From: a phage
Sequence record: PZ534511.1
Length of the DNA: 64,000 bases
Reading direction: 5' to 3' (one strand)
Shown: positions 1,273 to 25,163 of the stretch, one piece after another
Numbering within the stretch: position 1 is the first letter of the stretch
How the letters are laid out: every line of letters begins with the position of its first letter
The notes under the pieces: model-generated
What the model was told of the DNA's origin: nothing
Seen by the model: the letters and a program-made list of their open reading frames with translations, nothing else
Databases searched by the model: none
Translations under genes and position numbers: made by a program

Positions 1273-1886
1273 TGGATATTATTGTTCTTAACGCCCCACC
1301 CAGCAGTGGTAAGGATCACATTGCAGGTCTCTTGTTGGAAGCTATTCCTAACTCACACCACCGTGAGGTTAAGGAAATGCTCTTCAGTGTGGCAATTAAG
1401 GCAGCTGGTGTAACTCCTCAACTCTGGAATGCACTTTATGACCGCCACTACAAAGAAGAGCCTTGCCCTTTCTTGATGATAGACGGCAAGCATGTTTCTC
1501 CGCGAGAATGGATGATCCATTGTAGTGAAAATCTGATTAAACCTGTCTTTGGTGAAGATGCTTTCGGTAAAGCCGCAGTCGCATCTTTGAAGAAAGATTT
1601 CCCTGAAGGTAAAGGGGTTATTGTTTACTCCGATGGGGGATTCAAAGAGGAGCTGGCATGCCTTAGCGAGTACGCATACAGCACAGGTGGAGATCTGTTG
1701 TTGTTCCGTATTCACCGTGTAGGATATGACTGGGGAAATGATTCCAGAACCTATCTAAGTCTGGAAAAGAACGGAATAAAAGGGGTTGAGTTTGATGTTG
1801 TAAACCCTGAAGGTGCACCTTGGGAGTGTGCATCTGAGATTGTGTGCAAGTATATTGATGCTAAAGAGGCCCAAGAAGAATGTTAA
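1272..1886 (+). CDS. P-loop nucleotide kinase-like protein (possible dNMP kinase)
   Basis: N-terminal P-loop-like NAPPSSGKD; sits in nucleotide-metabolism cluster. Confidence 0.4.
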   Translation: MDIIVLNAPPSSGKDHIAGLLLEAIPNSHHREVKEMLFSVAIKAAGVTPQLWNALYDRHYKEEPCPFLMIDGKHVSPREWMIHCSENLIKPVFGEDAFGKAAVASLKKDFPEGKGVIVYSDGGFKEELACLSEYAYSTGGDLLLFRIHRVGYDWGNDSRTYLSLEKNGIKGVEFDVVNPEGAPWECASEIVCKYIDAKEAQEEC

Positions 1887-2473
1887 TCGGAATTGATGTA
1901 GATTTGACACTGGTAGATTCAGGAACAGCATGGTGGGAGTGGTTGGAGCGTTTGTATGGTCCAGCCAGTAAGACAGTAGCTAAACCTTCTAATGGGCTAA
2001 TGTATTACGATCTGTCAAAGTATTGGCCTGATCGTCCCAAAGAAAACATCATAGGACCTTTTGATTTCTGGAGTGATCCGTTCCTCTACGACTTCCTTAA
2101 GCCTGAAGAGGGGGCTATTGAGGTTATGAAAGATTTGGTGGCTCGTGGTCACAAGCTTGCATTTATCTCGGTATGCAAGAAAGGTCACCTTGCATCTAAA
2201 TCAAGGTTCTTAAAGCGTTGGACCAGTGATTTTATGGATCTGGACGATCACACCCAGGGCCACGGCTTCTACGCCACACATTTCAAAGGGAATGTGGCTG
2301 TAGATGTTATAATTGACGACAGGCATGAATACCTGAACCAATTCGCTTCACGACCTGAAGTTATTAAAATCCTAAAAGATACGCCTTATGAGCAATTCGA
2401 GGAGTTAAAGGTCAGTGTTGACTATACCGCTAATAGCTGGTATAAAATAGGAAAATTTTTAGAAGGTATTTGA
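1880..2473 (+). CDS. HAD-superfamily phosphatase (putative 5' nucleotidase)
   Basis: HAD motif I GIDVDLTL (DxDxT) at N-terminus. Confidence 0.5.
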   Translation: MLIGIDVDLTLVDSGTAWWEWLERLYGPASKTVAKPSNGLMYYDLSKYWPDRPKENIIGPFDFWSDPFLYDFLKPEEGAIEVMKDLVARGHKLAFISVCKKGHLASKSRFLKRWTSDFMDLDDHTQGHGFYATHFKGNVAVDVIIDDRHEYLNQFASRPEVIKILKDTPYEQFEELKVSVDYTANSWYKIGKFLEGI

Positions 2474-10300: not shown

Positions 10301-10363
10301 TACTTGACAAAAGCCACAAGGATGTGGCATATTATTGACACACAGTGAGCTAGGAGGTACAGT

Positions 10364-10480
10364 ATGTCTACAGGTATTTATAAAATTTGCAAGTGTGGTT
10401 GTCGTTGCAACCTTCGTTGGTGCAAGGCACTGGACGATTTTATTTGGCATTGCCCTAAATGTGATGCGGAGTATCTATGA
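10364..10480 (+). CDS. 38-aa Cys-rich zinc-ribbon micro-protein (below ORF-track size cut-off)
   Basis: AGGAGG RBS 7 nt upstream; CKCGCRC...CPKC; stop overlaps nrdG start (ATGA). Confidence 0.45.
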   Translation: MSTGIYKICKCGCRCNLRWCKALDDFIWHCPKCDAEYL

Positions 10481-11511: not shown

Positions 11512-12306
11512 ATGGGTCGAGCTAAAGAAACAAAACGCATGCGTGATGAAGCTAAAGAGGCTCGCAAATCTGATCGCCTGCGTAAAGCTGCTGAGAAATT
11601 TGCTGACGAAAGAGAGCACACCGCTCCAGCTCTCCGACCGATGAATAAAAAACAAGAGTATTATCTCCACCTTCTTAAAACTAAACAGTTAGTGATCGCA
11701 ACAGGGCTGTTTGGCACAGGCAAGTCGTTTATGGCTGCAGCTTATGCTGCAGACCTGCTTCGTAAGAACGAGATTGATAGAATTATTGTTTGCCGCCCAA
11801 ATGTTGAATGCGGAAGCCATGGCACGGGGTTCAAACCTGGAGGTGTACTACAGAAAAACGAACCTTTCTTAAAATCAATTTTAGAAACTCTCAAAAAACG
11901 ACTCGGACCTGGTGCTTATAGTACGTTATTGGGAGACGGTCAGACTGGGCGCATCGAGGTGCAAGAGGTTGCAACAATCCGAGGTCGAGATTTCTCTGAT
12001 CGTTGCATCCTCCTAGTTGATGAGTTTCAGTTGACAACCTGTGCAGAGGCTTTGGCAATTGCCACACGGCTTGGTGAGCATGCACAAATGATTTGCATGG
12101 GAGACTTACGACAGAACGATCTCAAAGGCACCTCAGGACTTCAGTGGCTGATCGACTTCGTGACGAGGCACGAAATCAACGGTGTTGGTATCGTAGATTT
12201 TGACGAGCCAGGAGATGTGGTTCGCTCAGGTATTGGTAGACTGTTTGCACTAGGCCTTATGACTGACCGTAATAAAGGTGTGTGGACCCCTGAGGCAGGT
12301 TTATAA
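11512..12306 (+). CDS. phoH: PhoH-like ATPase
   Basis: Walker A GLFGTGKS and PhoH-like IVCRPNVECG. Confidence 0.75.
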   Translation: MGRAKETKRMRDEAKEARKSDRLRKAAEKFADEREHTAPALRPMNKKQEYYLHLLKTKQLVIATGLFGTGKSFMAAAYAADLLRKNEIDRIIVCRPNVECGSHGTGFKPGGVLQKNEPFLKSILETLKKRLGPGAYSTLLGDGQTGRIEVQEVATIRGRDFSDRCILLVDEFQLTTCAEALAIATRLGEHAQMICMGDLRQNDLKGTSGLQWLIDFVTRHEINGVGIVDFDEPGDVVRSGIGRLFALGLMTDRNKGVWTPEAGL

Positions 12307-12347
12307 TATATAGGAGAGAGGGTGATATTATTCACCCTCTATTTAAG

Positions 12348-13277
12348 ATGCGTTTAGGAGAACAGTTACCACGAGAAGAAGTGTTTATCAAGAAAGCTAC
12401 TGATAAGCATGGTGACAAGTATAATTACTCCAAAGTTGTATACAAAAACAACACAACACCTGTGAATATAGTGTGCAACAAGTGTGGTACAGTTTTTAGT
12501 AAAACTCCTAAGTCTCACCTTATAGGCGCAGGATGCCCAGATTGTAAGAACAGGGAGTTAAGTGAGAGATTCCGAATGTCCAAGGAGGAGTTTGTAAAAA
12601 GGGCAACAGAACTGCACAAGGGAAAGTATGACTACTCTCTTGTAAAAAGTTTTTCTAACAGGAACGACACTGTTACTATTATTTGCCCCATCCACGGAGA
12701 GTTCAAGCAGACAGTTGCAAATCATTTAGCTGGTGGGTGCTACAAGTGTGGAAAAAGAGCGACAGCTAAAAAGATGAGGAAGTCTAAAGATAGATTCATA
12801 GAGGATGCTACTCAACTACACGGAGACATATATGACTATTCAGAAGTGGAGTATGTGAATACCCACACTCCTGTAACCATTATCTGCAAGTCTTGCGGGT
12901 GTAAGTTTCTTCAACAGCCTGCAAACCACCTGTGCGGTAACGGTTGCCCAGAATGCTCTACTTCAGGATTCAGGCAGAGTACTAAAGAGAGCTGTCTGTA
13001 CCTTCTTGTTGATAATCTTACCATTCCCACGGTTATAAAAGTTGGGGTGACTATCAATCTACAAAGCAGACTATACAACATAAGAAGGAACACAAATTTT
13101 CCTGTTCACGTGCTTAAAGTATTTACTTTCGAACAGGGGTGTGCTACCATGCAGCTTGAAAAATTGGTGCATAAAGTATTTGCAGATCGCAACTGCCACT
13201 TCGAAGGTTTCGACGGGGCAACGGAGTGGTTCTGGTACTCTCATGATATTGTAGAGTTTCTAGAAGACAATTGTTGA
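12348..13277 (+). CDS. protein with three tandem zinc-finger-like repeats and C-terminal T5orf172/GIY-YIG-like domain
   Basis: three ~45 aa repeats (K.GDKY.YS.V.Y...C..CG...H..G.GCP.C) then LYLL..IKVG.T...RL...R......EWF-type domain. Confidence 0.5.
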   Translation: MRLGEQLPREEVFIKKATDKHGDKYNYSKVVYKNNTTPVNIVCNKCGTVFSKTPKSHLIGAGCPDCKNRELSERFRMSKEEFVKRATELHKGKYDYSLVKSFSNRNDTVTIICPIHGEFKQTVANHLAGGCYKCGKRATAKKMRKSKDRFIEDATQLHGDIYDYSEVEYVNTHTPVTIICKSCGCKFLQQPANHLCGNGCPECSTSGFRQSTKESCLYLLVDNLTIPTVIKVGVTINLQSRLYNIRRNTNFPVHVLKVFTFEQGCATMQLEKLVHKVFADRNCHFEGFDGATEWFWYSHDIVEFLEDNC

Positions 13278-13302
13278 CAAACAGATAAGCTTTATGTATT
13301 AT
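13274..13302 (+). promoter_or_regulatory. sigma70-like promoter (TTGACA-17-TATTAT)
   Basis: -35/-10 hexamers; overlaps upstream stop codon. Confidence 0.5.
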
Positions 13303-13332
13303 TACCGGGCAAGACAAGGAGAAGGAGATAGT

Positions 13333-13644
13333 ATGGCTACAATACAAGAGAAACTGAATAAAATATACTGCCTGTTTGTCTATAACGGCGAGACAATTTT
13401 GGCAAATAAAGGATCCAAGAATGTGTGGACCAAGGACAGTGGTGGTAATATAATCAACTTAGCGTTGCTACGTGAGCGCCGACACAGATTCTTTATCGAG
13501 TCTCGAATTATTGAAAGCAGCACCTGCTACAGAACAGGCGATAAAGTAATTGTTGACAATGATACGTGGTATGTGGTAGACTGGCAATCATTGAGCTGTG
13601 ATGCTTCTGACAATCGTAAGTATTCCATAGTGATTGCTAAATAA
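13333..13644 (+). CDS. hypothetical protein
   Basis: ATG with AAGGAG RBS; the 13294 ATG lies inside the promoter. Confidence 0.45.
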   Translation: MATIQEKLNKIYCLFVYNGETILANKGSKNVWTKDSGGNIINLALLRERRHRFFIESRIIESSTCYRTGDKVIVDNDTWYVVDWQSLSCDASDNRKYSIVIAK

Positions 13645-13704
13645 AGGTAAATGTAAATCAGGTTTAAATAAATAGCTTTCAACTTCCAATATTAAGGATT
13701 TCTC

Positions 13705-14754
13705 ATGAATTTAACACCTCGCAGCACCATGGTACACGGCATGAAAGAAAAACAGAACAGTTTCGAACCTATGAGTAATAAAATGTTTGGTATGCCGGGT
13801 GGTATTATGGAAACATACAGCTACCCAACACCTGTTGTTGACCACGTTCTTTATATCGACGATTTGGAAGACCTGCAGGATCATATGTCTCGTCTGCAGA
13901 CGATCCGTATGGCTCAGCCGGAAGAAAGCATTCGGGTGATCATCAATAGCCCTGGGGGGTGCGTGCACATTGCAATGGCTTATCTACAGGCATTCCGCGA
14001 GTCTCAGGCAAGCGTTGTTGCACATGCTGAAGGGATGTGCTGCTCTGCGGGAACAATCTTATGGCTGGGTTGCAAAGAACGCACTGTGGCTCCGGACACA
14101 GAATTTATGTTCCACTACTATCAAGGTGGCACTTATGGTAACGGTGTGAACATGAATACTCAGGTCAGCTACTGGAAAAAACGTTTTGAACGCCTGATTG
14201 AAAAATACTACGGTGGAGTGCTGACAGAAGATGAGATCGCATCCATCACAGCTGGTGGCGAAGTGTGGTTGGACGGAGAAGAGCTGGCAGCACGTACTGG
14301 AGCTATTATTCTGGATGAAGGCAACATACAACGCATCCAGAACGGACAAAAACCTAAAAAGCTTCTGGCAAAAGGTGATGAAGAAGGCGTGTTAGGTGAA
14401 GCAGGTCTTCCGGAGATTCATCAGTGCACATCTTTAGATGAGTTAGTTCATGCTGTTGAATCTGCAAAAGCGGGTGGTTCGAAAGGTGATGTTCACACTG
14501 TGTTCCTGAATCTGCAGATGGAAAGTGGCGAGACCGTCCGAATTGCCCTGGGTGAGATTACTTCAGAAGATCTGCAGAGATTCTCTGTCGTTGAACTTCA
14601 GGATATTCTGTCTCAATTGAAGACTACTCTGAACGGCGGTGAAGAGGTTAAGGTGAAAGATAAGACTCGCAAGCGTCTTGTGGACAATATTATTAAAACA
14701 GCAAAAGAGCTCAATGAAAAAATCCTGGGTGCAGGAATTGTCGAAGAAGCTTAA
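13705..14754 (+). CDS. ClpP-like serine protease (S14 family) with acidic C-terminal extension
   Basis: IINSPGG, GMCCSAGTIL (Ser), FHYYQGG (His) in ClpP-like order. Confidence 0.65.
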   Translation: MNLTPRSTMVHGMKEKQNSFEPMSNKMFGMPGGIMETYSYPTPVVDHVLYIDDLEDLQDHMSRLQTIRMAQPEESIRVIINSPGGCVHIAMAYLQAFRESQASVVAHAEGMCCSAGTILWLGCKERTVAPDTEFMFHYYQGGTYGNGVNMNTQVSYWKKRFERLIEKYYGGVLTEDEIASITAGGEVWLDGEELAARTGAIILDEGNIQRIQNGQKPKKLLAKGDEEGVLGEAGLPEIHQCTSLDELVHAVESAKAGGSKGDVHTVFLNLQMESGETVRIALGEITSEDLQRFSVVELQDILSQLKTTLNGGEEVKVKDKTRKRLVDNIIKTAKELNEKILGAGIVEEA

Positions 14755-14765
14755 ACATTAATTCT

Positions 14766-14790
14766 AAAGCCCTCTTCGGAGGGCTTTTAT
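14766..14790 (+). terminator. rho-independent terminator
   Basis: AAGCCCTC-UUCG-GAGGGCUU hairpin followed by UUUAU. Confidence 0.7.
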
Positions 14791-14805
14791 GATCTGGAGA
14801 TTTGC

Positions 14806-15339
14806 ATGACTTGTGCTAGAAAACCTGATGAACAACGTAACGCCTACGATGAGTATGTGACACCGGAGTGGTGTGCAGAAGGGCTGTATGACCTCATTCC
14901 GTTCCCAGAAGATTGGGCCTATTTGGAGCCTTGCAGAAATAGCGCCTCAGGCGTGTTCTACTCCCGTATGCCGTTAGGATCTGCATGGGGAGAAATCCAA
15001 GAAGGTGTTGACTATCTGAATACAGAATACAACCATGTTGACTGTATTATCACCAACCCACCATACAGCCTGGCTCGTGAGTTTGTAGACAAGGCGTTGA
15101 AAGATGCTGACGTAGTTATTATGCTTTTGCGTCTTAATTTTCTGGAAAGCAAAGCCAGATTTGAATGGTGGCTTGATAATGCACCTACCACTGTGATCAC
15201 AATATCTAAGCGTCCGTCATTCCAATCCAACGGTAGAACGGATGGGCAGGCATATGCCTATTTTGTATGGGACAAGAAAAACCGTCTAGACTTGCCGCCA
15301 TTTATGTGGTTGGCACCACCAGAGGTAGACTTGAAATGA
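14806..15339 (+). CDS. phage Dam-like N6-adenine DNA methyltransferase
   Basis: DEYVTPEW N-terminal motif and ITNPPY catalytic motif. Confidence 0.7.
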   Translation: MTCARKPDEQRNAYDEYVTPEWCAEGLYDLIPFPEDWAYLEPCRNSASGVFYSRMPLGSAWGEIQEGVDYLNTEYNHVDCIITNPPYSLAREFVDKALKDADVVIMLLRLNFLESKARFEWWLDNAPTTVITISKRPSFQSNGRTDGQAYAYFVWDKKNRLDLPPFMWLAPPEVDLK

Positions 15340-15620
15340 AAATGAGTGCTAAGGACAAGTTGCACCAGTTGGCGCTAAAACGTCCTGTAACGCTCCCTGA
15401 CGAGCTTAACTCCATTTATGATGCGATTGTAGGGGAGATACAAAATAAAGCGTTAGCAGGCTTTCTGGGATGCGGATTTTCGATAAATCTACCCTCGCAT
15501 CTCTCAGATTACTTCCCGCATATTGTTGGGGATTTGAGGGCAGGAGGTCTGCAGGTAGATGTTGTTGGCATCTCTCCAGAGAAAAATAACACGGTTGCCT
15601 ACTTGACAGTAACTTGGTAG
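15336..15620 (+). CDS. hypothetical protein
   Basis: start set at ATG overlapping MTase stop. Confidence 0.4.
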   Translation: MKMSAKDKLHQLALKRPVTLPDELNSIYDAIVGEIQNKALAGFLGCGFSINLPSHLSDYFPHIVGDLRAGGLQVDVVGISPEKNNTVAYLTVTW

Positions 15621-15654
15621 TTGTGTATTGTTGTTATCAACAAGGGGGTCATTT

Positions 15655-15894
15655 ATGTACAAGTCATTTTCAATTTACTCAAGACAGGCGAAACACTACA
15701 CAGAGATTCTGATCACTCAGAAAAAATCTGTAGAAGGTGAGTGGGAATATCATCATAAAATGTTGCGTCCAGACTGGGTTTTTGATAGGCTTATTGCTAT
15801 GATCCCTCTTGGAGAAGTATACCCTCTGACAGGTCATAGGGATGCTTGGGATTTAATTGATTACATAGATTCATTTAAGGAGCCTAGTGTATGA
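15655..15894 (+). CDS. hypothetical protein
   Basis: ATG with AAGGGGG RBS. Confidence 0.4.
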   Translation: MYKSFSIYSRQAKHYTEILITQKKSVEGEWEYHHKMLRPDWVFDRLIAMIPLGEVYPLTGHRDAWDLIDYIDSFKEPSV

Positions 15895-16289
15895 AGATTG
15901 AGATCACTAAAGAAGGTAAGAAAGTGTCTGGCGATTATGCAACAGTAATTCGGGATGTAATGTTTGAAGTAACCCAGACTGGTACTTCTAAGGTTGGTCA
16001 AACGGTAAGTGTGCAAGGTAATATTGCCGCAGGTGAAAAGATAATCATCGTGATCAAAGGACAAGACCCTGTGGAAGGAACAGTGGGCCGAGGAGGCTAC
16101 CTGTGCATTTCTGAAGAACCGCGTATGCTGGTTGCTGATAACTTCACAGGTAAAAAGCGGGTATGTAACACGGACGAGGTGATGATTATCTATCCAGTCA
16201 ACCAAGATGATCCGGCAACATGGATTGTGGGAAATGAAATCTTCTCTTTAGAAGAGTTATCCTTCCCAGCTCCGCGCTCTGTTCAGTAA
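15891..16289 (+). CDS. hypothetical protein
   Basis: ORF with AAGGAG RBS. Confidence 0.45.
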   Translation: MKIEITKEGKKVSGDYATVIRDVMFEVTQTGTSKVGQTVSVQGNIAAGEKIIIVIKGQDPVEGTVGRGGYLCISEEPRMLVADNFTGKKRVCNTDEVMIIYPVNQDDPATWIVGNEIFSLEELSFPAPRSVQ

Positions 16290-16328
16290 TAATTTATCTT
16301 ACCAGGGACGGTAGAAGTAGGAGGTAGC

Positions 16329-16562
16329 ATGAAAGTTAAATTTCTTACAGATTTAGGATACCCTTCCTTGGTTGACTGCATCGGTAAAATTGTGGAAGCA
16401 AAACGGCTATCTGCAAACGATAATGTTGTCATGGTTAAGGGAAAAGATTTATTAGCTGCAGGTGCAGAGTCTGGCAGGATCTCTCCTGACTATACGTATT
16501 ACCTGTCTTTAAGCAATCTACCAGAACGAGGCGGCAAAGGCCTTGAAGTTGTGGAGGAGTGA
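16329..16562 (+). CDS. small protein, member of MKVK...VEIVEE paralog family
   Basis: MKVKFL...G.DLLAAGA...GLEVVEE resembles ORFs at 19993-24375. Confidence 0.5.
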   Translation: MKVKFLTDLGYPSLVDCIGKIVEAKRLSANDNVVMVKGKDLLAAGAESGRISPDYTYYLSLSNLPERGGKGLEVVEE

Positions 16563-16567
16563 CAGGT

Positions 16568-17092
16568 ATGCTTCTGATTAACTGGGAAGACCTCTATGGG
16601 GACAAAGACCCTGTTGCGTTTGTTGGTCGTAGGTGGAGGTACACTGAAGAACAACTGGCTGCAAAAAATTTAACTGCAAAACGCAGAAAGATTATCCAAT
16701 GCAAGTACAAATACGCACAGTTTGCTGCAAAAGTGTCTCCACAAATCGAGAGCTTTGTACTTAAATTGTATGACGAGTATCTCAAATTCAAATTGGATTT
16801 TGTGCAGGTATACCGTGCACAGGTACGTCCAGATACCAGCATTTGTAGATGGAAGGTTGTTTGTGACGGTAAAGATTTGCCACTCAGCTTGACAATTGAG
16901 CAGCGTTGGGGGTATCATGAGTGTGGTCTGTATGAGACTTGGGATGTCATTGTAGATCCTGCTAAGTACCTGAACACAGAGGAGCTGGAATATATCAATA
17001 AGGTTATTCTAGATATGTTTTTCAACTACACCCGTGAAAACTCCGAGAAAGAACGAGATAATTTTCTTGACACCATCAGCAACCATCTGTAG
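16568..17092 (+). CDS. hypothetical protein
   Basis: ORF; ATG with GGAGGAG RBS. Confidence 0.45.
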   Translation: MLLINWEDLYGDKDPVAFVGRRWRYTEEQLAAKNLTAKRRKIIQCKYKYAQFAAKVSPQIESFVLKLYDEYLKFKLDFVQVYRAQVRPDTSICRWKVVCDGKDLPLSLTIEQRWGYHECGLYETWDVIVDPAKYLNTEELEYINKVILDMFFNYTRENSEKERDNFLDTISNHL

Positions 17093-17122
17093 TATATAAT
17101 TTAACCTACAAAGGGAGGGCTA

Positions 17123-17359
17123 ATGAGTATAAATGTTGTGCTAATAGGTTACCTGGTAATAGCCGCTATAACAGCGGTATTCTTGACAGGTGTATGCATC
17201 GTGTCCAGACGAAGGGTGAAGTTTGATGATTTTATCACCATCATCACTGCTGCACCTTTTTGGCCTGTTGTTATCTTCATCGTGATAATGTGCCTGGTTG
17301 ATTACTACAAGAATATCCGTAAGGAGAAAAAGGAGGGTAGGGATGGAGACCGCACCTAA
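17123..17359 (+). CDS. small membrane protein (2 predicted TM)
   Basis: two hydrophobic stretches. Confidence 0.45.
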   Translation: MSINVVLIGYLVIAAITAVFLTGVCIVSRRRVKFDDFITIITAAPFWPVVIFIVIMCLVDYYKNIRKEKKEGRDGDRT

Positions 17360-17578
17360 AACTGTTTATACTGTTCTTAAAGAGATTGCGTTCTACGCAG
17401 ATCTTAGCCAGGCACCTTTATGGGAAAAGAGCATGTATTTAAAATGGTGCGTTAATTTAGGGAGACCTTCCAGTGTTTCAAGCCATGTTTATTGAGATGC
17501 TATCTGGGGTATTGTTACTGGTAGCCATCTTAGGTGGTGCAGTTCTGATGTATAACTATCTTGAAAAAGGAGACAGCA

Positions 17579-17764
17579 ATGGCAAAAAATAAATCTTTAG
17601 AGCAGGCTGAAAACCTTCTCCACGAGCTAGTAAAGGAGTGGAAAGTTGAATACTCAGATTTTAATGCACGAGAGGGTGAAGATTATTGGCCTACGGAGCG
17701 CTCAGAGGGCGAATGGTATCAAGATTTTATAGAGTGGTTATATCAGACGTGCGATGAGGGGTGA
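17579..17764 (+). CDS. hypothetical protein
   Basis: ATG with GGAG RBS inside track ORF 17561-17764. Confidence 0.35.
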   Translation: MAKNKSLEQAENLLHELVKEWKVEYSDFNAREGEDYWPTERSEGEWYQDFIEWLYQTCDEG

Positions 17765-18231
17765 CGATGTTTGTTAAATATGTAAAAACGTGCCTCAACA
17801 GTCTTGGCAGAGAGCATTGGTACACTTTGCTTGAAAAAGGGGAAATTTTAACAAAATCTGGAAAGATAACTTTGATACCTCTTGATAGTAAAGGTAAAGA
17901 CCCGTCACGACTTGTTATAGATGATTACGTTACAGGTGTGACGTTCGAGGTCTCTGTGGAGAGGTTAATACGCAGAGCTGGCGGCCCTTATGACCGAAGA
18001 GAGTATGTTTTCGATTCCGTTACAGAGATGGGGGAGCATCCGTCTTTAATGTTCAGGATGGTAATCAGAGATATGAGGTCATCTATAGATAGGATCGTAA
18101 AGGACATTAAGGAACCTTTTAGAGTAAAAGTTAAGAAGTTTTTCGATTCTAAGATTAACATACTTGCCGTTGCACTAGGTGTAGTTCAACTTCTGTTAAT
18201 TTTGCACTATTTTGAACTACTATTTAAGTAG
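17761..18231 (+). CDS. hypothetical protein with C-terminal TM helix
   Basis: ORF; hydrophobic C-terminus. Confidence 0.45.
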   Translation: MTMFVKYVKTCLNSLGREHWYTLLEKGEILTKSGKITLIPLDSKGKDPSRLVIDDYVTGVTFEVSVERLIRRAGGPYDRREYVFDSVTEMGEHPSLMFRMVIRDMRSSIDRIVKDIKEPFRVKVKKFFDSKINILAVALGVVQLLLILHYFELLFK

Positions 18232-18293
18232 TAGTTGAGATATGGCACAAAGGATGTGCCATAGTGAAATAAACTAAGAAAGAGGTAGAGAGA

Positions 18294-18641
18294 ATGCCAA
18301 AGATTAAAACGTTATTACTGTGGGTAGCTGTTTTAGCTTTTATAGGGTACTGGACTTGGGAAACTGAATTAAAAGATATCGGATATACCAGTCTTGAGAG
18401 CAAGGCGTGCATTGGCATAACCGATGCGTTCAGGCAAAATGCTATGGATCACGAATGTGTTGATGCAGATATAGATGAGAAACTGTCTAAGGACAAAGAT
18501 TTTTACCATGGGCATGCTTTACTTGATAGTGGTGACACTGTAGAGTTCTGGTCGTGGTTTCGTGAAGATGGAACAATAAAAACAGCAGTAAAGATCTCTA
18601 ACAAAGAGTTAATGCTGTTGCAGCAAAAGGAGGCTCAATGA
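18294..18641 (+). CDS. hypothetical protein with N-terminal TM/signal segment
   Basis: MPKIKTLLLWVAVLAFIGYW hydrophobic N-terminus. Confidence 0.45.
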   Translation: MPKIKTLLLWVAVLAFIGYWTWETELKDIGYTSLESKACIGITDAFRQNAMDHECVDADIDEKLSKDKDFYHGHALLDSGDTVEFWSWFREDGTIKTAVKISNKELMLLQQKEAQ

Positions 18642-18925
18642 TCTGGATATCCTATGCTGATGGCACCATGCTGTATACTGCAGGTACCAGATATGAAGTT
18701 CAGGAGAACGATAAAAAATTTATCGTAAAAACATTTGACAAGGACGACAACCTTTTGCTAGAATTGACTTACAAAGTTGGAGAGGTATCCAATATCCAGT
18801 TGGATTGTGGTCATAAAGATAATCCACTCAAAAAACCTGGAGTAGGTAAGGCTTCAGAAGAACGTCTGTCTCGTATTGCAGAAAGCGTTTCTCCCCAAAA
18901 ATCTAAGAAGAGGACTAGAAAATGA
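18638..18925 (+). CDS. hypothetical protein
   Basis: ORF overlapping neighbours by 4 nt. Confidence 0.45.
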   Translation: MIWISYADGTMLYTAGTRYEVQENDKKFIVKTFDKDDNLLLELTYKVGEVSNIQLDCGHKDNPLKKPGVGKASEERLSRIAESVSPQKSKKRTRK

Positions 18926-19116
18926 AAAACTTACGTTTTAACACTTATTACTACAACACATTGAATGATTTGTATTATATTGTTCGAAGTAAAAGTCCTG
19001 AAACAGTCCTATTCTGCCGCGAACCTTTCAAAGGGGAGGAAGTAGAGTCTGAGATGAATGTTAGCCAGATCACCTCTTTGTTGCTCTCAGGCGCAATGGA
19101 AGAAGCAATATTCTAA
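18922..19116 (+). CDS. hypothetical protein
   Basis: ORF. Confidence 0.4.
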   Translation: MKNLRFNTYYYNTLNDLYYIVRSKSPETVLFCREPFKGEEVESEMNVSQITSLLLSGAMEEAIF

Positions 19117-19134
19117 ACCAGGCGGGAGGGTTTT

Positions 19135-19320
19135 ATGAAGCACTATTGCCTGTCTGGTAGAATGGGTGCAGATTGTGATTGGGTTTTCTTAAAACTTGTC
19201 AGCATTCGAGAGTTCATCCCAGAGGAAGAGCAAGAAAGCGAGCTGATGTCATGGATCAACCATTACGGTAACACTTTTCGGCATGTTAAGGTAGAAGAGT
19301 TGCCAAGCGAGGCTGATTGA
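19135..19320 (+). CDS. hypothetical protein
   Basis: ORF with GGGAGGG RBS. Confidence 0.4.
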   Translation: MKHYCLSGRMGADCDWVFLKLVSIREFIPEEEQESELMSWINHYGNTFRHVKVEELPSEAD

Positions 19321-19322
19321 CT

Positions 19323-19412
19323 ATGATTGCATCAATATTAACGTTTATGGGTGGCGTGGCATTCGGATTCATTGTTTGCCTGTTTATAGTGATTATGTCT
19401 ATGCGAGGCTGA
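19323..19412 (+). CDS. 29-aa hydrophobic micro-protein (below ORF-track cut-off)
   Basis: single TM-like stretch filling gap between genes. Confidence 0.3.
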   Translation: MIASILTFMGGVAFGFIVCLFIVIMSMRG

Positions 19413-19415
19413 ATT

Positions 19416-19712
19416 ATGAAACTTTTTGAGTGGTTTAAAAAGTTTAAATATAAAGCTGTAGCCATCGTGCCGTGGTCCATTCAGTGGGTTGATGAATGTG
19501 GTCTACCAATACCTGGTGACAAAGATACTGGGTACTGGATTATGATGGAGAACGGGTTTGGAAAGAGAAAGTATACGTGCACAAACTCTACTCGATCTGC
19601 ACTTAATAGAGTGCCTGGTTACAAACTTATGGTTGTGTGGAAAATGTCAGGCGTTCCTCCAGCCAATGCTCAATTTCTTACTGACAATCCAACCACGGTG
19701 GAGGGAGATTGA
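19416..19712 (+). CDS. hypothetical protein
   Basis: ORF. Confidence 0.45.
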   Translation: MKLFEWFKKFKYKAVAIVPWSIQWVDECGLPIPGDKDTGYWIMMENGFGKRKYTCTNSTRSALNRVPGYKLMVVWKMSGVPPANAQFLTDNPTTVEGD

Positions 19713-19714
19713 TA

Positions 19715-19996
19715 ATGAAAAAGGTTAACAGTGGTGAAGTTGAGTTTAAACTTGTCGGGAAAGGCACTTACTGGGAAGTTCGTCAAAAGGTATATTTGTT
19801 CGGTCTTATTCCCTATTGGTCTAAATTCTACTGGGGAGCTAACGAGTTGGGAAGATACGCCACCAAATCAATGGCACTTATTGGTATAGCAGAGTACATT
19901 GCAGCCAGAGATAGGGTTGGAGACACTTATTACTATACTGCGGACGATATTCGTAACAGTGTTTACGTCCCACAACCACCTGATGGAGACCGTTGA
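19715..19996 (+). CDS. hypothetical protein
   Basis: ATG with GGAG RBS. Confidence 0.45.
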   Translation: MKKVNSGEVEFKLVGKGTYWEVRQKVYLFGLIPYWSKFYWGANELGRYATKSMALIGIAEYIAARDRVGDTYYYTADDIRNSVYVPQPPDGDR

Positions 19997-20220
19997 TGAA
20001 AGTTAAAGTTTTAGATTCAAGCTTCTATATTGGTCAAGAGCCTTTGGTTGGAAAAGTGTTTACCGCTGTTCCTAATAAAGATTACCCTGACCTTTTAAAA
20101 ATAAAAGGGTCAGCTCTTATTGCCGCTGGCGCATCTCAGGAATGCTTTGACAGTCAGTGGACCTACAACTTTGCCCTAGGAGAGGATGTGGAGATAGTGG
20201 AGGACGATCATGAAGGTTAA
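19993..20220 (+). CDS. small protein, MKVK...VEIVE paralog family
   Basis: MKVKVLDSSFYIGQ...GSALIAAGA...DVEIVED. Confidence 0.5.
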   Translation: MMKVKVLDSSFYIGQEPLVGKVFTAVPNKDYPDLLKIKGSALIAAGASQECFDSQWTYNFALGEDVEIVEDDHEG

Positions 20221-20464
20221 AATTCTTGACTCTAACGTCTACTTGGGACAATCCTTCCTGAAAGGAAAGGTCGTACCTGCGGCATACTTCGAATGGTTGC
20301 CTGACAACGATCCTGTGCGTCAGAAGCATTCCACTGTATCACACTGTGTGGTATTTATTCGCGGGTCAGATCTGATCAAAGCTGGTGTCCCCAAGTATTA
20401 CTTTGAGGAAGAACATTACTATGCCTTCGGTGTAGGAACAGATGTAGAGATTGTAGAGCGGTAG
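20210..20464 (+). CDS. small protein, MKVK...VEIVE paralog family
   Basis: MKVKILDSNVYLGQ...GSDLIKAG...DVEIVER. Confidence 0.5.
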   Translation: MKVKILDSNVYLGQSFLKGKVVPAAYFEWLPDNDPVRQKHSTVSHCVVFIRGSDLIKAGVPKYYFEEEHYYAFGVGTDVEIVER

Positions 20465-20465
20465 T

Positions 20466-20864
20466 ATGAAGAACAAGCTTTTCAAAGTAACAATGAAAAT
20501 TCGCGGAGCTTGGAGCGTAAAGCAAGGACGTATTCCAGAATTTGAGAAAGACTTCTACGTAGTCTCCACCTCGGAGGAGGCTGCATGCTGGCAGGCTGGC
20601 TATGCCTATGCAAGAACATGGTACGAAGGGTACCAGACTGGTGGCTATGACGGAGAAATTATCAGCAAAGGTGCAGAAGAAATTAATGTGTTGACAAGTG
20701 AAAAAGTTTTTGTTATAGTGCATCCAGATTCCAGAGTGAAGCATTACTGGAATGCCAGAACAAAAACTTGGACACCGTTTGCAGATTCTGCTACACCACT
20801 TTTAAACCAAAAAGCTCTTGACTCTGCCCCGAGCTATGGGGTTGTTGAAGAAAAGCTAAACTGA
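20466..20864 (+). CDS. hypothetical protein (paralog of 22676-23071)
   Basis: shared HP.S...YW......WTP...T.L pattern. Confidence 0.5.
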   Translation: MKNKLFKVTMKIRGAWSVKQGRIPEFEKDFYVVSTSEEAACWQAGYAYARTWYEGYQTGGYDGEIISKGAEEINVLTSEKVFVIVHPDSRVKHYWNARTKTWTPFADSATPLLNQKALDSAPSYGVVEEKLN

Positions 20865-20881
20865 AACAGTGAGGTGCCACT

Positions 20882-21172
20882 ATGATGGATTTAGTTCTGA
20901 ATATTGATAACGCAGGAGAGGTTAAAGACGATGGTGTAACAAGCATGTACCAACCATGCCCTGCCAAGATTGACTCAAAATGGACCTATAAGTTTGACGG
21001 AGAGATCTTTGCAAATGATGAAAAGGTTGTAGATGCTGCAGCCATTTTGAACGCTCTAGGGTACGACCCTGTGAATTCTTTGATCAAGGATCCTGTTGAG
21101 TTTGCAGAGTATGTTCGAAAAATGGCAGATCTTGCTGTAGATATTTTAGATACTATCGACAACAAGCTGTAA
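20882..21172 (+). CDS. hypothetical protein
   Basis: ORF with GAGGTG RBS. Confidence 0.45.
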   Translation: MMDLVLNIDNAGEVKDDGVTSMYQPCPAKIDSKWTYKFDGEIFANDEKVVDAAAILNALGYDPVNSLIKDPVEFAEYVRKMADLAVDILDTIDNKL

Positions 21173-21178
21173 AAACTG

Positions 21179-21207
21179 TTGACACAACGCTTCAGCTATA
21201 GTATTAT
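21179..21207 (+). promoter_or_regulatory. sigma70-like promoter (TTGACA-17-TATTAT) upstream of hpf
   Basis: -35/-10 hexamers. Confidence 0.55.
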
Positions 21208-21259
21208 TGTTTTCAAAGAGAGATGGTTGTTATTCTCCCTTCCTTGAGAGGAGCACGTT

Positions 21260-21577
21260 ATGCAAATTGAGATCACTGGCAACGTAGAAATCACCGAAGG
21301 TATGGTGTCTTTCATTTCCCACAAAATGTCAAAACTGGAGCGTCTACATCCTTCTGTAAATCATGCACGTGTAAGTGTAAAAGTTGAAAATGATCACCAG
21401 GAAGTTATGGCGTTCATTTTTGACACTTCTGGAAAAGAAGTTATTGCCAAAGCTAAAGGCAGTGATGCTTACGAGGCAACTGACCGTATGGTAGATGTTG
21501 CAGCACGTCAGCTGGCTAAATGTGGTGGAAAGAAAGGTAAAGGGAAAGGAAAAGTAAAGATTGACTTTGGAGAATGA
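21260..21577 (+). CDS. hpf: ribosome hibernation promoting factor / RaiA family protein
   Basis: MQIEITGNVEITEG...KLE...VSVKVEN...GSDAYEATDRMVDVAARQLAK closely parallels E. coli HPF (MQLNITGNNVEITEA...DMYAAIDGLIDKLARQLTK), recalled from memory. Confidence 0.8.
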   Translation: MQIEITGNVEITEGMVSFISHKMSKLERLHPSVNHARVSVKVENDHQEVMAFIFDTSGKEVIAKAKGSDAYEATDRMVDVAARQLAKCGGKKGKGKGKVKIDFGE

Positions 21578-21586
21578 GGTGCTACA

Positions 21587-21688
21587 ATGGGCGTGATTAA
21601 GAAATTAGTCCCAAGTGTAGAGATTGCATGCTTTGAAATTATGTTTGCAATCGCAGTTGTAGTTAATGTGTTAGGTTACGGCTATTGA
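21587..21688 (+). CDS. 33-aa hydrophobic micro-protein (below ORF-track cut-off)
   Basis: GAGGTG RBS; single TM-like stretch. Confidence 0.3.
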   Translation: MGVIKKLVPSVEIACFEIMFAIAVVVNVLGYGY

Positions 21689-21714
21689 TATCAAATAATT
21701 GAGGAGACCTCTAA

Positions 21715-21984
21715 ATGAAAATTAAATTATTCAAAACTGAGCTGGCAGACAAAAACTGTGGACTGGTTGAAGGCATGATTGTTGAAGCACAACCAGTGGA
21801 CTACATGAAGGTGGTTCGTGATGCCTTGGGTGAAGGTTTTGATCTGATGGAGCCAGCTCTGCGAGAAGATGTCATCGAGATGGCTAAAAAGCACACACCT
21901 GAAGGTCTGGTGGTGTTTGTTGCACCGGGTAACGGAGAAGAGTTGATTGTAACTCCGGATGTGTATGAGATTGTAGAGGAATAA
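21715..21984 (+). CDS. small protein, MKVK...VEIVE paralog family
   Basis: MKIKLFK...ends VYEIVEE. Confidence 0.5.
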   Translation: MKIKLFKTELADKNCGLVEGMIVEAQPVDYMKVVRDALGEGFDLMEPALREDVIEMAKKHTPEGLVVFVAPGNGEELIVTPDVYEIVEE

Positions 21985-22075
21985 TCCTGCTTGGATTAGC
22001 ATACTTCCTCGATAAGGAAGGTTTGTAATTATTTGTGGGAAAGGAATCCCAATCTCTTACCAGAGGTGATACTAT

Positions 22076-22339
22076 ATGATTGTTTATTTTAAAACTTCAG
22101 GTGGATACCCTGATTCTCAAAGCTTGATCGGAAAAACGTGCACAGCATACTCACCTCTTGATGAGGAGGTAGGCGATATTCTACGGAATATGTATCGGAT
22201 TGATCCTCAAGAAGCTTTTGATCAAAACCTTGTATTTGTCAAGGGCTCAGACATGAAGTCTTTGGGAGCATTCCCTGAAGCAGATGATGATGCCGTTTAT
22301 TCGTTCATGACCCCTTTTGAAGCTATGGTTGTTGGGTGA
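22076..22339 (+). CDS. small protein, probable divergent family member
   Basis: similar size, ...VFVKGSDMKSLGA... core. Confidence 0.45.
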   Translation: MIVYFKTSGGYPDSQSLIGKTCTAYSPLDEEVGDILRNMYRIDPQEAFDQNLVFVKGSDMKSLGAFPEADDDAVYSFMTPFEAMVVG

Positions 22340-22346
22340 TAATATG

Positions 22347-22676
22347 AAAGTACGCTTTATTGGTGAAACAATTCCTGTGCATCTCCGGTCGCCTGAGGAT
22401 TCTGCAGATCTTGCATCTCAAAAGGCGAGAGGTTATGATAAGAAAGTAACCTCAACTGATGTAGTGCTTGAGGCTACTAGTCTACCTGACCCTGCTGCAT
22501 TCTTTAATCATTATGGGTACTATTTCAGCAATCTGATGAATATCGGTGAGCTTGTGTTTATTAGTGGTGGAGAGATTGTTAGCAAGCTTGGCGGCGATCC
22601 GGATGTCTTTCATGAAACCTGTCCTTTTGCATTTGTGGTAGGTTCAGATGTGGAAGTTATTGAGGAGGTGCGGTAA
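22347..22676 (+). CDS. small protein, MKVK...VEIVE paralog family
   Basis: MKVRFIGE...ends DVEVIEEVR. Confidence 0.5.
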   Translation, partial: KVRFIGETIPVHLRSPEDSADLASQKARGYDKKVTSTDVVLEATSLPDPAAFFNHYGYYFSNLMNIGELVFISGGEIVSKLGGDPDVFHETCPFAFVVGSDVEVIEEVR

Positions 22677-23071
22677 TGGTAAGCCTATACCGTGTTGAGT
22701 ATAGCTCAGATACTGTATACAACGTAAGAAGCAAAGATCGCAGCGACAGAGTGCAAGAAATGTATGTTCTTGCCGACAGTCCGTTATCTGCAGCGTTCAA
22801 GGCAGGGGCTCTTGCATCTCGTTGGAAATTTGAAGGCGGATCTTTCTATGAAGAAACCCTTGAAGATTCTGTTGTTATTTCTTCTGTAGAGGTTTCAGAT
22901 GACTACGAAGGGAAAAAGTTCGTAATGCGGCACCCACACAGCAACATTGCGTACTACTGGGATGTTCTGAACAACGAGTGGACCCCAGATCTTCAGAAGG
23001 CTACTGTGCTAACACCGTTTTTGGCAGATAAGTTCCCACCAGAAGGTAATTTATCCGCACTGTTTCAGTAA
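22676..23071 (+). CDS. hypothetical protein (paralog of 20466-20864)
   Basis: shared RHPHS..AYYWD....EWTP...ATVLTPF pattern. Confidence 0.5.
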   Translation: MVSLYRVEYSSDTVYNVRSKDRSDRVQEMYVLADSPLSAAFKAGALASRWKFEGGSFYEETLEDSVVISSVEVSDDYEGKKFVMRHPHSNIAYYWDVLNNEWTPDLQKATVLTPFLADKFPPEGNLSALFQ

Positions 23072-23089
23072 TTTTCTTGCACACAGGTG

Positions 23090-23118
23090 TTGACAACGCC
23101 AACCCTGTGTGAAATAAT
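23090..23118 (+). promoter_or_regulatory. sigma70-like promoter (TTGACA + AATAAT-type -10)
   Basis: consensus -35; A/T-rich -10 at about 17 nt. Confidence 0.45.
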
Positions 23119-23150
23119 ACCTTCATCTTAACAAGACAGGAGACCGATTG

Positions 23151-23408
23151 ATGAAGATTAAATTGAAAAACCTTGAAACGGCAGAGATTCAGGACGGTGT
23201 TGATTTCCGTTCTAAAGATGGTGACATCTTAGAGGTAAATATTCCAACCTACGAGCTGATTAAAGGTTTTGGCAACGTTCCGGAAGAGGATATTACAGAA
23301 ATTCTTATGATGTTGATTCTTGACGGAACTGTGTTTGTAGGTGAAGGTGAGAACGCTATTGCAATCCCAGGCCATTTTTATGAAGTAGTTGACGAAGAGG
23401 TGCTGTAA
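23151..23408 (+). CDS. small protein, MKVK...VEIVE paralog family
   Basis: MKIKLKNL...ends YEVVDEEVL. Confidence 0.5.
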   Translation: MKIKLKNLETAEIQDGVDFRSKDGDILEVNIPTYELIKGFGNVPEEDITEILMMLILDGTVFVGEGENAIAIPGHFYEVVDEEVL

Positions 23409-23759
23409 ATGAAAGTAGAAATTACCGGTTTTGATGTGAATGTGGTTCCGGAAGATATTTTAGCTAAACTTCCAGAAGGTTTTGGTAACGGCGTTGTGGT
23501 GGATGCTGTTCCTCCTACCAAAGACATTCTGCTGCAGTATGGTGTAGCAGAGGAAGATGTCGATAAAGTTCTTACAATGATGGCAATCGATCGTGTTGTC
23601 GTTGTTAAAGGTCTCGATAATTTTGAGAGTGATCCCCTGATTATTCGTGGAGATGACTACAAAATCATCGATAATGAAGGCCAAGAGTTCTATGAACCTT
23701 GTGCAGAAGATATTCTTAACTTATTACTGGAAGCAGGCACCGAAGAGGAGGACGAATAA
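23409..23759 (+). CDS. small acidic protein, family-like
   Basis: MKVEITG... acidic C-terminus. Confidence 0.5.
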   Translation: MKVEITGFDVNVVPEDILAKLPEGFGNGVVVDAVPPTKDILLQYGVAEEDVDKVLTMMAIDRVVVVKGLDNFESDPLIIRGDDYKIIDNEGQEFYEPCAEDILNLLLEAGTEEEDE

Positions 23760-24088
23760 TGAAGATTGACCCGTTACTGAAGGCTCGTGCAGAAAAAGCG
23801 TACACTATTAAGCTGACTAATCTGGTTCCTACTTGTCATCCGGATGTAGGTTGGCCCGAAGGTTTGGTGGAGGGAACTGTAACAGCTGCATACCTTCCTA
23901 ACATCAAATACCTCATGGAGATCTTAGAGATGGATGAGGAAACTGCAGAACAGTTCCAGTTGGATATGAAACAAAGTGGGACTCTGGTTATTCACGGGTG
24001 GTACAATACTAAAGATGCAGAAGACCCTCTGGTAACTTCTAATCTAGCATATGAAATCTTAGGACCTTTGAACCTGGAGAAAGACTAA
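23759..24088 (+). CDS. hypothetical small protein
   Basis: ORF translationally coupled to neighbours. Confidence 0.45.
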   Translation: MKIDPLLKARAEKAYTIKLTNLVPTCHPDVGWPEGLVEGTVTAAYLPNIKYLMEILEMDEETAEQFQLDMKQSGTLVIHGWYNTKDAEDPLVTSNLAYEILGPLNLEKD

Positions 24089-24375
24089 TGAAAGATCTGG
24101 TTAAGATTAAGATTAAAGATACCAATGGAGAACTCAGTCATTTTGGAATTAATGATGGTGACGAGCTGATCGCACACCTGCCTACCAAGGAAGTTGTAAG
24201 CAAAGCAGTTGCCGGAGAAGAAGATGCAATGCAGGCTGCAGGTGTGGATGAAAACTATGTAGCCATGTGCATGTGCCGAGATCAGGTTGTTCTGTATAAA
24301 GCGTATCGACCAAACGGAGCCACGGAGTGGCTTGTATTTCGACCTGAAGGATATGAAATCTTAGAGGCACTATGA
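24088..24375 (+). CDS. hypothetical small protein
   Basis: ORF; ends GYEILEAL. Confidence 0.45.
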   Translation: MKDLVKIKIKDTNGELSHFGINDGDELIAHLPTKEVVSKAVAGEEDAMQAAGVDENYVAMCMCRDQVVLYKAYRPNGATEWLVFRPEGYEILEAL

Positions 24376-24464
24376 TAAATCTTGCCAAGGTTGCAATGGT
24401 CCTGCTAATTATTTGCTGGTCAGTAACCTTAACACTGTGTCTTGTATTTCAGTGAGGTGCTTGT

Positions 24465-24728
24465 ATGAACATCCTGATGTGGGTTATAGCAGTGGCGTTT
24501 GTTGCATGTTTTTGCTGCTGGGTTGCGGTGAGGATTTCTGTAGCTACCCTTCGGAAGTTGGGGTTCTCAGAATGGGATATTAATATCCTTTCTTTTCGCA
24601 ATGAAACAATCTCAGCCGCCCTGCTTTGTAAGAAATTCAAGTGGGAACCTTGTGAGGTCATGAGCTATCTAAGAACAGGCGATATCCCTGAAAGATTTAA
24701 AAAAGTTCTTGACGGCAAGGATAAATGA
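24465..24728 (+). CDS. small membrane protein
   Basis: hydrophobic N-terminus MNILMWVIAVAFVACFCCWVAV. Confidence 0.45.
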   Translation: MNILMWVIAVAFVACFCCWVAVRISVATLRKLGFSEWDINILSFRNETISAALLCKKFKWEPCEVMSYLRTGDIPERFKKVLDGKDK

Positions 24729-24883
24729 CAGTATAGTGACTAACAAGAGGTGAGGAGTGACTGATTTTACTGAAGCTTTAATGATGGCCTTGTCTGTTTT
24801 AGCGCTATCGGTGTGTTTTGGGGCGTTATTCACATCTCTGGTTAAAGTTTTACATACAGTATTATTACCCAAGGAGCGCAGTA

Positions 24884-25135
24884 ATGACGAAGATTGACTT
24901 GAATGCTGGCGACCATGTTGTTGTCAAATGCATCGGAGATTATCTTGGATTCACAATCGGCAATACTTACGAGGCGGTAGTGGCGAAGGTTTATCATGAT
25001 AAAGTCCTCAGTCTTGTATTTGACTGCGATGATGATGGAGATGACCGATACGTCTGTGAGGTGCTGGCACGAGACGACAGTGAAGACCAGAAATTCCTGG
25101 TTATTGAACTAAACGGTATTTTTGTAGAACGTTAA
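24884..25135 (+). CDS. hypothetical protein
   Basis: ATG with AAGGAG RBS. Confidence 0.4.
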   Translation: MTKIDLNAGDHVVVKCIGDYLGFTIGNTYEAVVAKVYHDKVLSLVFDCDDDGDDRYVCEVLARDDSEDQKFLVIELNGIFVER

Positions 25136-25163
25136 TTTAAAACAACATAAGGAGACTCTTACT

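Follow-up and report, generated by a model that had tools for sequence, protein, structure and literature searches.

The ORF at 12348..13277 of a 64,000-nt stretch of phage DNA (PZ534511.1; the whole stretch is hereafter the window) is likely a free-standing gene for a homing-endonuclease-like protein from the T5orf172 branch of the GIY-YIG superfamily, carried on a cassette and predicted to home by the route set out below. The gene is a precise, sporadic insertion between the hairpin that follows phoH and the promoter of the next gene, and the 1.6-kb cassette to which it belongs is distributed independently of the genomic backbone. What is new here is the base-resolved structure of this cassette and a phoH-downstream hot spot in rV5-like phages; by itself, the assignment of the ORF is a routine annotation upgrade.

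Intactness and family of the ORF

12348..13277, + strand: putative free-standing T5orf172/GIY-YIG homing endonuclease ORF (ATG start, 309 aa, TGA stop)

The reverse strand of this interval contains stop codons throughout. This 930-bp ORF is also unbroken in 4 other phage genomes and is annotated as a CDS in relatives, including a near-identical GenBank copy, SophiaRose gp123, labelled “putative GIY-YIG nuclease family protein”. Among the 4 carriers examined, the ORF differs by 5 synonymous and 4-5 non-synonymous codons, with ligand and motif residues unchanged. No paralog of it was found within the 64-kb window. Using tblastn, homologs were retrieved from 992 phage records, with at least 80% of the protein covered in 517; the hosts of these phages include Vibrio, Salmonella, Klebsiella, Escherichia, Aeromonas and others, and the matches include T5-like phages and the ICP1 gene annotated “tcgB: putative homing endonuclease”. 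A large protein collection yielded 4,080 relatives at E ≤ 1e-5. The architecture is also encoded by bacterial plasmids, where PGAP names it “GIY-YIG nuclease family protein”. PHROG 681 (“endonuclease”) spans nearly the entire 309-aa protein (E 4e-66), and an NCBIfam search of the protein gave no match. The HNH endonuclease annotation of PHROG 559 was rejected, as its match is restricted to the finger array (aa 10-227) and zero HNH families were detected with Pfam. Copies named “hypothetical protein” in GenBank can be relabelled as homing-endonuclease-like genes of the T5orf172/GIY-YIG type whose products have a DNA-binding array of three zinc-finger units.

Zinc-finger array and nuclease domain

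12375..12572, + strand: zinc-finger unit 1 (aa 10-75), candidate ligands C43, C46, C63 and C66
12573..12776, + strand: zinc-finger unit 2 (aa 76-143), candidate ligands C113, H116, C131 and C134, with DUF723 at aa 99-134
12777..12992, + strand: zinc-finger unit 3 (aa 144-215), candidate ligands C180, C183, C200 and C203
12993..13274, + strand: T5orf172 (GIY-YIG superfamily) nuclease domain (aa 216-309), with Y218, K231-V-G233, R241, E271, H275 and GFDG-TEWF (E293)

The three tandem repeats and the motif strings quoted in the initial annotation are present in 12348..13277: the repeat motif KHGDKYNYSKVVYKNNTTPVNIVCNKCGTVFSKTPKSHLIGAGCPDC is found together with its two repeats, and inter-repeat local BLOSUM62 scores of 101-168 compare with 23-25 ± 4-5 for shuffled sequences (z = 16-30). 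Repeat pairs share 25/63 to 33/66 identical residues. The repeat length of ~45 aa given there is right for the conserved core and wrong for the period, which is 66-70 aa once the leading helix and linker of each unit (helix pattern FI..A...HGDKYDYS.V.Y) are counted. Likewise, the CxxC...CxxC pattern ascribed to each repeat applies to units 1 and 3; in unit 2 the ligands read C113-x2-H116...C131-x2-C134, and with a CxxH first pair its fourth ligand would therefore be His. C180, C200 and C203 are almost invariant across the family alignment.

The module was expected to be of a zinc-binding type, and two Pfam families exceed their cut-offs over it, each in 2 stretches: DUF4379, “probable treble clef zinc finger” (E 1.4e-9, 38.4 bits, cut-off 24.5), and DUF723 (E 6e-6, 26.5 bits, cut-off 20.9). 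The CapR homology domain (PF21817) stayed below threshold (10.8 bits against a cut-off of 24.2, E 0.57); judged by sequence, the fingers are related to the CapR type yet lie outside the CapR family. We built an AlphaFold2 model from a 12-sequence alignment of full-length homologs, with a mean pLDDT of 81, values of 85-95 in the fingers and C-terminal core, and low values mainly at inter-domain linkers and in one loop (aa 289-291). In modelled unit 1 (pLDDT about 90), the first ligand pair sits at a beta-hairpin knuckle (39-52) and the second at the N-terminus of a helix (64-74); the ligand pairs of units 2 and 3 occupy equivalent positions. The predicted zinc ligands, on a beta-hairpin knuckle and a helix N-terminus, are thus modelled in a treble-clef arrangement, and the top Foldseek match in the PDB is a DUF4379 protein (6yxx_E2, E 6.7e-4). 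The same finger module is joined to DUF559 (Vsr-like) nuclease domains in P0102 and P0116 and also occurs in HNH-annotated proteins; its fusion to several nuclease types fits a portable DNA-targeting array.

The C-terminal strings CLYLLVDN..IKVGVT..RLYNIRRN..EWFWYSH, from which a T5orf172 likeness had been proposed, are present in the ORF, and the likeness is confirmed by Pfam T5orf172 (PF10544; GIY-YIG clan; E 2.3e-9, 38.1 bits, cut-off 20, aa 225-302), by the sister model MUG113 (E 4e-8, 34 bits, cut-off 22.3) and by GIY-YIG nucleases being the best structural matches of the modelled domain. This domain follows the order beta-beta-alpha-beta-alpha-beta-alpha, an alpha/beta fold with a three-stranded antiparallel sheet and helices on its flanks, as in the GIY-YIG superfamily, and the positions of the Tyr of “GIY”, Lys-x-Gly, Arg and Glu are all kept. 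Y218, K231, G233, R241, E271, H275 and G287-F-D-G..T-E293-W-F are (nearly) invariant in homologs down to 35% identity. Residue equivalence with characterised GIY-YIG enzymes is tentatively suggested by motif conservation and a weak hhalign match (probability 4%) that places Y218, K231-V-G233 and R241 on I-TevI Y6, Y17-V-G19 and R27, using an I-TevI sequence confirmed against PDB entries 1mk0 and 1ln0; from motif order, we infer that E293 corresponds to I-TevI E75 and Odn E180 (PMC8263062). Plain sequence and profile searches of the PDB did not reach GIY-YIG structures, and a search with the C-terminal 105 aa as query returned just 3 matches, the word-indexed method being too insensitive for such a short domain.

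All four Pfam models (DUF4379, DUF723, T5orf172 and MUG113) thus scored above their curated cut-offs in the domain search that the initial annotation had suggested, and the description “DNA-binding nuclease-like” is borne out by Pfam and the modelled fold. The domain reading is upheld because sequence matches and predicted fold agree.

Cassette structure and junctions

The window comes from an rV5-like coliphage (genus Vequintavirus) and is 95-99% identical to about 120 records. Locally, the genes run in the order nrdD, nrdG, two small ORFs, phoH, the 309-aa ORF, a 103-aa ORF, a ClpP-like protease and a methyltransferase. Boundaries were drawn against the gene-less reference genomes JohannBauhin (L002) and rV5_ev147 (L003), giving the following features around the ORF.

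11512..12306, + strand: phoH, mosaic gene (264 aa), first ~137 nt resident Vequintavirus backbone, remainder cassette
11650..12306, + strand: left-hand portion of the mobile cassette, a PhoH ATPase-domain segment (aa 47-264) of foreign origin
12317..12340, + strand: GC-rich hairpin after the phoH stop, 7 nt before the ATG of the ORF, without a T-tract
13264..13277, + strand: right junction of the cassette, where gene-less homology resumes within the last codons of the ORF
13274..13302, + strand: Sigma-70-like promoter of the downstream gene (TTGACA-17-TATTAT, 11/12 matches)
13333..13644, + strand: downstream 103-aa ORF, resident backbone and right-flank marker, 99% aa identical in gene-less relatives

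Identity to gene-less relatives is about 98% up to ~11648 (137 nt into phoH) and then 56% over 11650-12306; the ORF is absent from these genomes, and homology is back at 13264 at about 97%. Both junctions define a mobile unit of about 1.6 kb (11650-13263) that comprises the nuclease gene and a foreign PhoH ATPase domain in complete form. The foreign domain is 51% identical in amino acids to the usual allele, has intact Walker A (GLFGTGKS) and Walker B (LLVDE) motifs, and was always paired with the nuclease gene (7/7 records, never without it). It has zero relatives between 99% and 53% identity (phage collection; 5.8e9 proteins), so its donor is unsampled. The foreign PhoH segment matches PF02562 only, and the usual alleles also match AAA_30, AAA_19 and AAA_22.

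The hairpin at 12317-12340 (RNA fold -17.9 kcal/mol, z -3.0) has an equivalent after phoH in gene-less relatives and so occurs with both phoH allele types. Neither a Shine-Dalgarno sequence nor a promoter was recognisable between the hairpin and the ATG, and a promoter search upstream of the ORF found none. Given this, and the hairpin just before the ATG, expression of the nuclease gene is probably low and achieved by read-through from phoH. At the other end, the -35 hexamer of the 13274-13302 promoter includes the TGA stop (13275-13277); this promoter is conserved in gene-less relatives. The mechanical start of the downstream ORF (13294) falls inside this promoter; translation probably begins at the ATG at 13333, which follows GGAGAAGGAG and is the start annotated in relatives. 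The gene-less intergenic sequence AACAGTTGTTGACA (L002 3436-3451) resembles window 13264-13279, GACAATTGTTGACA, which contains the last codons and stop of the ORF (Asp-Asn-Cys-stop); this gene-less sequence may be what is left of a nuclease gene since lost, or just the conserved -35 region.

An Rfam search at the site gave no match at E ≤ 0.1, and this result together with the intergenic position of the gene speaks against an intron or structured RNA there. ARAGORN detected zero tRNA genes in the 64-kb window. Over the stretch that corresponds to window 13300-25300, annotations of relatives include a ribosome hibernation promotion factor-like gene (sigma-54 modulation protein) and, in rV5_ev146, Gotham and A51.2, an HNH homing endonuclease.

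Distribution of the cassette among Vequintavirus genomes

Carriers make up 7 of about 123 related records (navn, phiWec191, SophiaRose, “Campylobacter” phages C2 and C5, the fragment ECO121 2-1-1 and YP-6), all with identical junctions, and all other relatives are without the gene. The cassette is 99.0% identical among carriers (15-16 mismatches over 1,614 nt), as against 96.6-97.3% between their flanks and those of the window (Fisher p 5e-7). The nearest relatives by left flank are BP9 (98.7%), YN3 (98.5%) and slur16 (98.1%), and those by right flank are 241Ecol014PP (96.8%) and naswa (96.6%). Since all of these are non-carriers, the distribution of the cassette disagrees with the backbone. 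The locus therefore has the genomic signatures of a homing endonuclease gene, which the initial annotation had overlooked: a presence/absence polymorphism at a fixed site in otherwise collinear genomes, and a cassette more conserved than its flanks whose distribution is discordant with the backbone.

The same contrast between cassette and flanks could also arise by ordinary recombination, and the cassette might have been spread among mosaic Vequintaviruses by homologous recombination alone, with the nuclease gene as an inert passenger. Flank identities differ from segment to segment among relatives, in line with pervasive Vequintavirus mosaicism, so that ordinary recombination could spread the cassette without help from the nuclease. 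Taken alone, the left-flank contrast between carriers and non-carriers was not significant (p 0.14), and only two distinguishable carrier backgrounds occur among the sequenced genomes. However, an inert passenger of 930 bp would be expected to gain frameshifts, and the ORF is unbroken in all carriers examined. At least five different alleles with a conserved nuclease domain occur at the same site (see below), which points to recurrent, nuclease-associated turnover. We consider spread as a mere passenger very improbable.

Records titled “Campylobacter phage” and marked UNVERIFIED (MG065655, MG065659 and about 19 more) share about 97% identity with rV5-like phages of E. coli across the region. 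Their host label seems doubtful, perhaps through contamination or mislabelling.

Alleles at the same site in a second rV5-like lineage

P0094 and P0100 (about 53% identity) are, together with P0121, the closest of the diverged homologs. All three have phoH on one side and, on the other, a 105-aa ORF that precedes a ClpP-like gene; they come from metagenomic contigs of a more distant rV5-like lineage whose downstream ORF is 35% identical to that of the window. A scan of viral contigs added three further loci at the same site (L010-L012) and restricted the phoH linkage to this sub-clade, with 3/80 T5orf172 loci showing it. Nuclease domains of the alleles at this site are 64-96% identical, as against 27-47% for their finger arrays, except for the L009/L012 pair (94%), and the arrays contain 3, 3, 3, 4 or 1 units. 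The one-finger allele L009 seems to have arisen from the L012 type by an in-frame deletion between repeats. Both L009 and L012 have a third PhoH allele, whose ATPase domain is about 43% identical to those of the others. Between L009 and L007, homology breaks 103 nt into phoH and returns inside the T5orf172 domain, a left breakpoint that almost matches that of the window. Strict co-variation of finger array and phoH allele, as in a specificity-plus-immunity unit, was considered and rejected: L007, L010 and L011 combine the standard phoH with three unrelated arrays.

From these alleles we suggest, with considerable doubt, that in rV5-like phages the site downstream of phoH has long been an arena for T5orf172 nuclease genes, in which a conserved nuclease domain has been re-armed with at least five unrelated arrays and the PhoH ATPase domain replaced at least twice, by alleles that occur nowhere else among 5.8 billion proteins.

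The ORF might also be a domesticated or decaying relative of homing endonucleases that now acts mainly as a regulator with sequence-specific DNA binding, perhaps repressing the promoter over its own stop codon, its nuclease activity being lost or irrelevant. I-TevI autorepresses, and the stop codon of the ORF lies inside a strong -35/-10 promoter. CapR, a protein with this kind of finger, is a repressor of transcription that binds the -35 element of a promoter (PMC8096241), domestication is not excludable by sequence alone according to Barth et al. (PMC10448857), and L009 provides a one-finger deletion derivative at this very site. CapR-type regulators, however, are wholly without a nuclease domain. 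Here Y218, K231/G233, R241 and E293 are (nearly) invariant across homologs that are 35-53% identical, which argues for selection on catalysis, and an essential regulatory role is opposed by the lack of the gene in most relatives. A regulator of this kind is unlikely in our view, and a homing-endonuclease-like gene remains the preferred reading.

Comparison with characterised nucleases and finger proteins

The zinc-finger module was initially described as unusual, which does not stand: the architecture is a published, widespread class and among the commonest designs of phage nuclease genes, of which this ORF is an uncharacterised member. Barth, Dunham and Seed described this design as T5orf172 putative homing endonucleases (NAR Genom Bioinform, 2023; PMC10448857). 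In their set, 200/229 have fingers of the CapR, DUF723 or DUF4379 type, often repeated (the paper prints DUF4397 in several places, and 4379 in a figure legend). The genes cluster near essential genes such as ribonucleotide reductases and at genetic-exchange boundaries, and vary through repeat deletions and domain swaps; homing is experimentally unverified according to the same authors (PMC10448857). The ORF shares with this set (ICP1 gp165, gp174 and tcgB; T5-like, Plateaulakevirus and VpaJT-like phages) the order of N-terminal repeated fingers and C-terminal T5orf172 domain, variable presence, proximity to conserved and ribonucleotide-reductase genes, location at exchange boundaries, in-frame repeat-number deletions and shuffled binding domains. 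Identity to ICP1 tcgB is about 25%. It differs in belonging to Vequintavirinae, a lineage outside PMC10448857, in having fingers of the DUF4379/DUF723 rather than the CapR type, in its neighbour phoH, which is not among their scored marker genes, and in a linked exchange unit that is defined here to the base. Homing endonucleases in Vequintavirinae are also covered in a Certrevirus paper, which has no mention of the T5orf172 finger-array class.

In T4 SegA-G and I-TevI the catalytic domain is N-terminal, and it is combined with helix-turn-helix/NUMOD modules and a single structural zinc finger. In the ORF it is C-terminal and follows three tandem fingers predicted to be treble clefs. HMMER detects zero sequence similarity between them, and the ORF has Lys in place of the second GIY-YIG Tyr. 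Slx1, UvrC and Eco29kI serve cellular repair or restriction with other partner domains, at 8-20% sequence identity. CapR of PLE has a related Cys4 finger unit derived from T5orf172 homing-endonuclease genes, in which four cysteines are needed for sequence-specific DNA binding; it is a satellite-encoded transcriptional repressor without a nuclease domain (PMC8096241).

Our literature search found one member of the T5orf172 branch with in vitro cleavage and a catalytic Glu mutant: Odn (ICP1 gp88), which cleaves DNA in vitro and is inactive as the conserved-Glu mutant E180A (PMC8263062). Odn and the ORF both have a C-terminal T5orf172 catalytic domain with conserved Arg and Glu; Odn has a RepA_N binding domain from its satellite target and serves in phage defence, in contrast to the three-finger array of the ORF. 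Because Odn is a T5orf172 nuclease in exactly such a role (PMC8263062), we weighed whether the nuclease here is retained to destroy a competitor (a satellite, plasmid or co-infecting phage) and not to copy itself. Predicted odn analogues exist in some coliphages (PMC10448857), accessory defence genes are also expected to be sporadic, and PADLOC gave a weak match of the nuclease domain to a candidate system (PDC-S57, E 4e-5). An assignment to a defence system was not supported, as PADLOC returned just weak candidate-family matches over the nuclease domain. Odn-type proteins take their binding domain from the target, whereas the array here is of a generic homing-endonuclease kind. A search of 5,426 E. 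coli genomes, made to see whether the binding domain came from a host or satellite, gave no match to the DNA encoding the array. Tight linkage to a replaced neighbour gene and diverged alleles at the same site typify homing, not defence. A role as a weapon of this sort is quite unlikely. Cutting the rival phoH allele of a co-infecting phage would amount to marker exclusion and overlap the homing explanation.

Proposed homing mechanism

Under the favoured homing explanation, in a mixed infection the finger array would read an extended, asymmetric DNA site in the gene-less allele, with the 3' part of phoH or the phoH-downstream intergenic region as candidate targets. Carriers of the second lineage retain the standard phoH, so the target may be the intergenic junction and not phoH. 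The tethered GIY-YIG domain would cut near the finger-bound site, and recombinational repair would copy the nuclease gene from the co-infecting carrier. As the alleles of the PhoH domain are only about 56% identical in DNA, the repair tract would extend leftward until good homology is first reached, about 137 nt into phoH, and the whole PhoH domain would be converted too. The carrier is presumed immune because its own target site is disrupted or diverged. The array could embody a modular DNA-recognition code, with a few base pairs per treble-clef unit.

Should the nuclease cut inside competing phoH alleles, the result would be a cut-and-replace system of natural origin, in which a selfish nuclease would drive allelic exclusion and the deep diversification of phoH, a widespread but functionally obscure phage gene. 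The cassette offers a clean, base-resolved case of the published idea that nuclease genes sit at phage genetic-exchange boundaries, in therapeutic-candidate coliphages (Vequintavirus) for which such a nuclease cassette had not been described. It is also a tractable system: carriers (navn, SophiaRose and phiWec191) and gene-less phages (BASEL phages and rV5) are in collections, one 1.6-kb cassette apart, and such a pair could settle whether T5orf172 genes home. Tandem treble-clef fingers with a monomeric nuclease domain may interest engineers of programmable nucleases, if the units are modular.

Nuclease genes in the ribonucleotide-reductase region

The nrdD-nrdG intergenic region of the window (10301-10476) contains no insertion. 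The phoH-cassette carriers examined tend to have a second gene there, between nrdD and the small ORF upstream of nrdG: SophiaRose (L001 228..1388), navn (L004 480..1412) and phiWec191 (L005 415..1401). In SophiaRose this second gene encodes a T5orf172 paralog of 386 aa that has four finger units and 37% identity to the ORF. Of the contigs from the second lineage, L009 has nrdD and nrdG separated by an HNH_3 gene (1570..2079), and L007 180..1663 has just a 154-aa Gly_radical nrdD fragment beside a gene with a faint NUMOD1 match. In general, the ribonucleotide-reductase region is a nuclease-gene hot spot.
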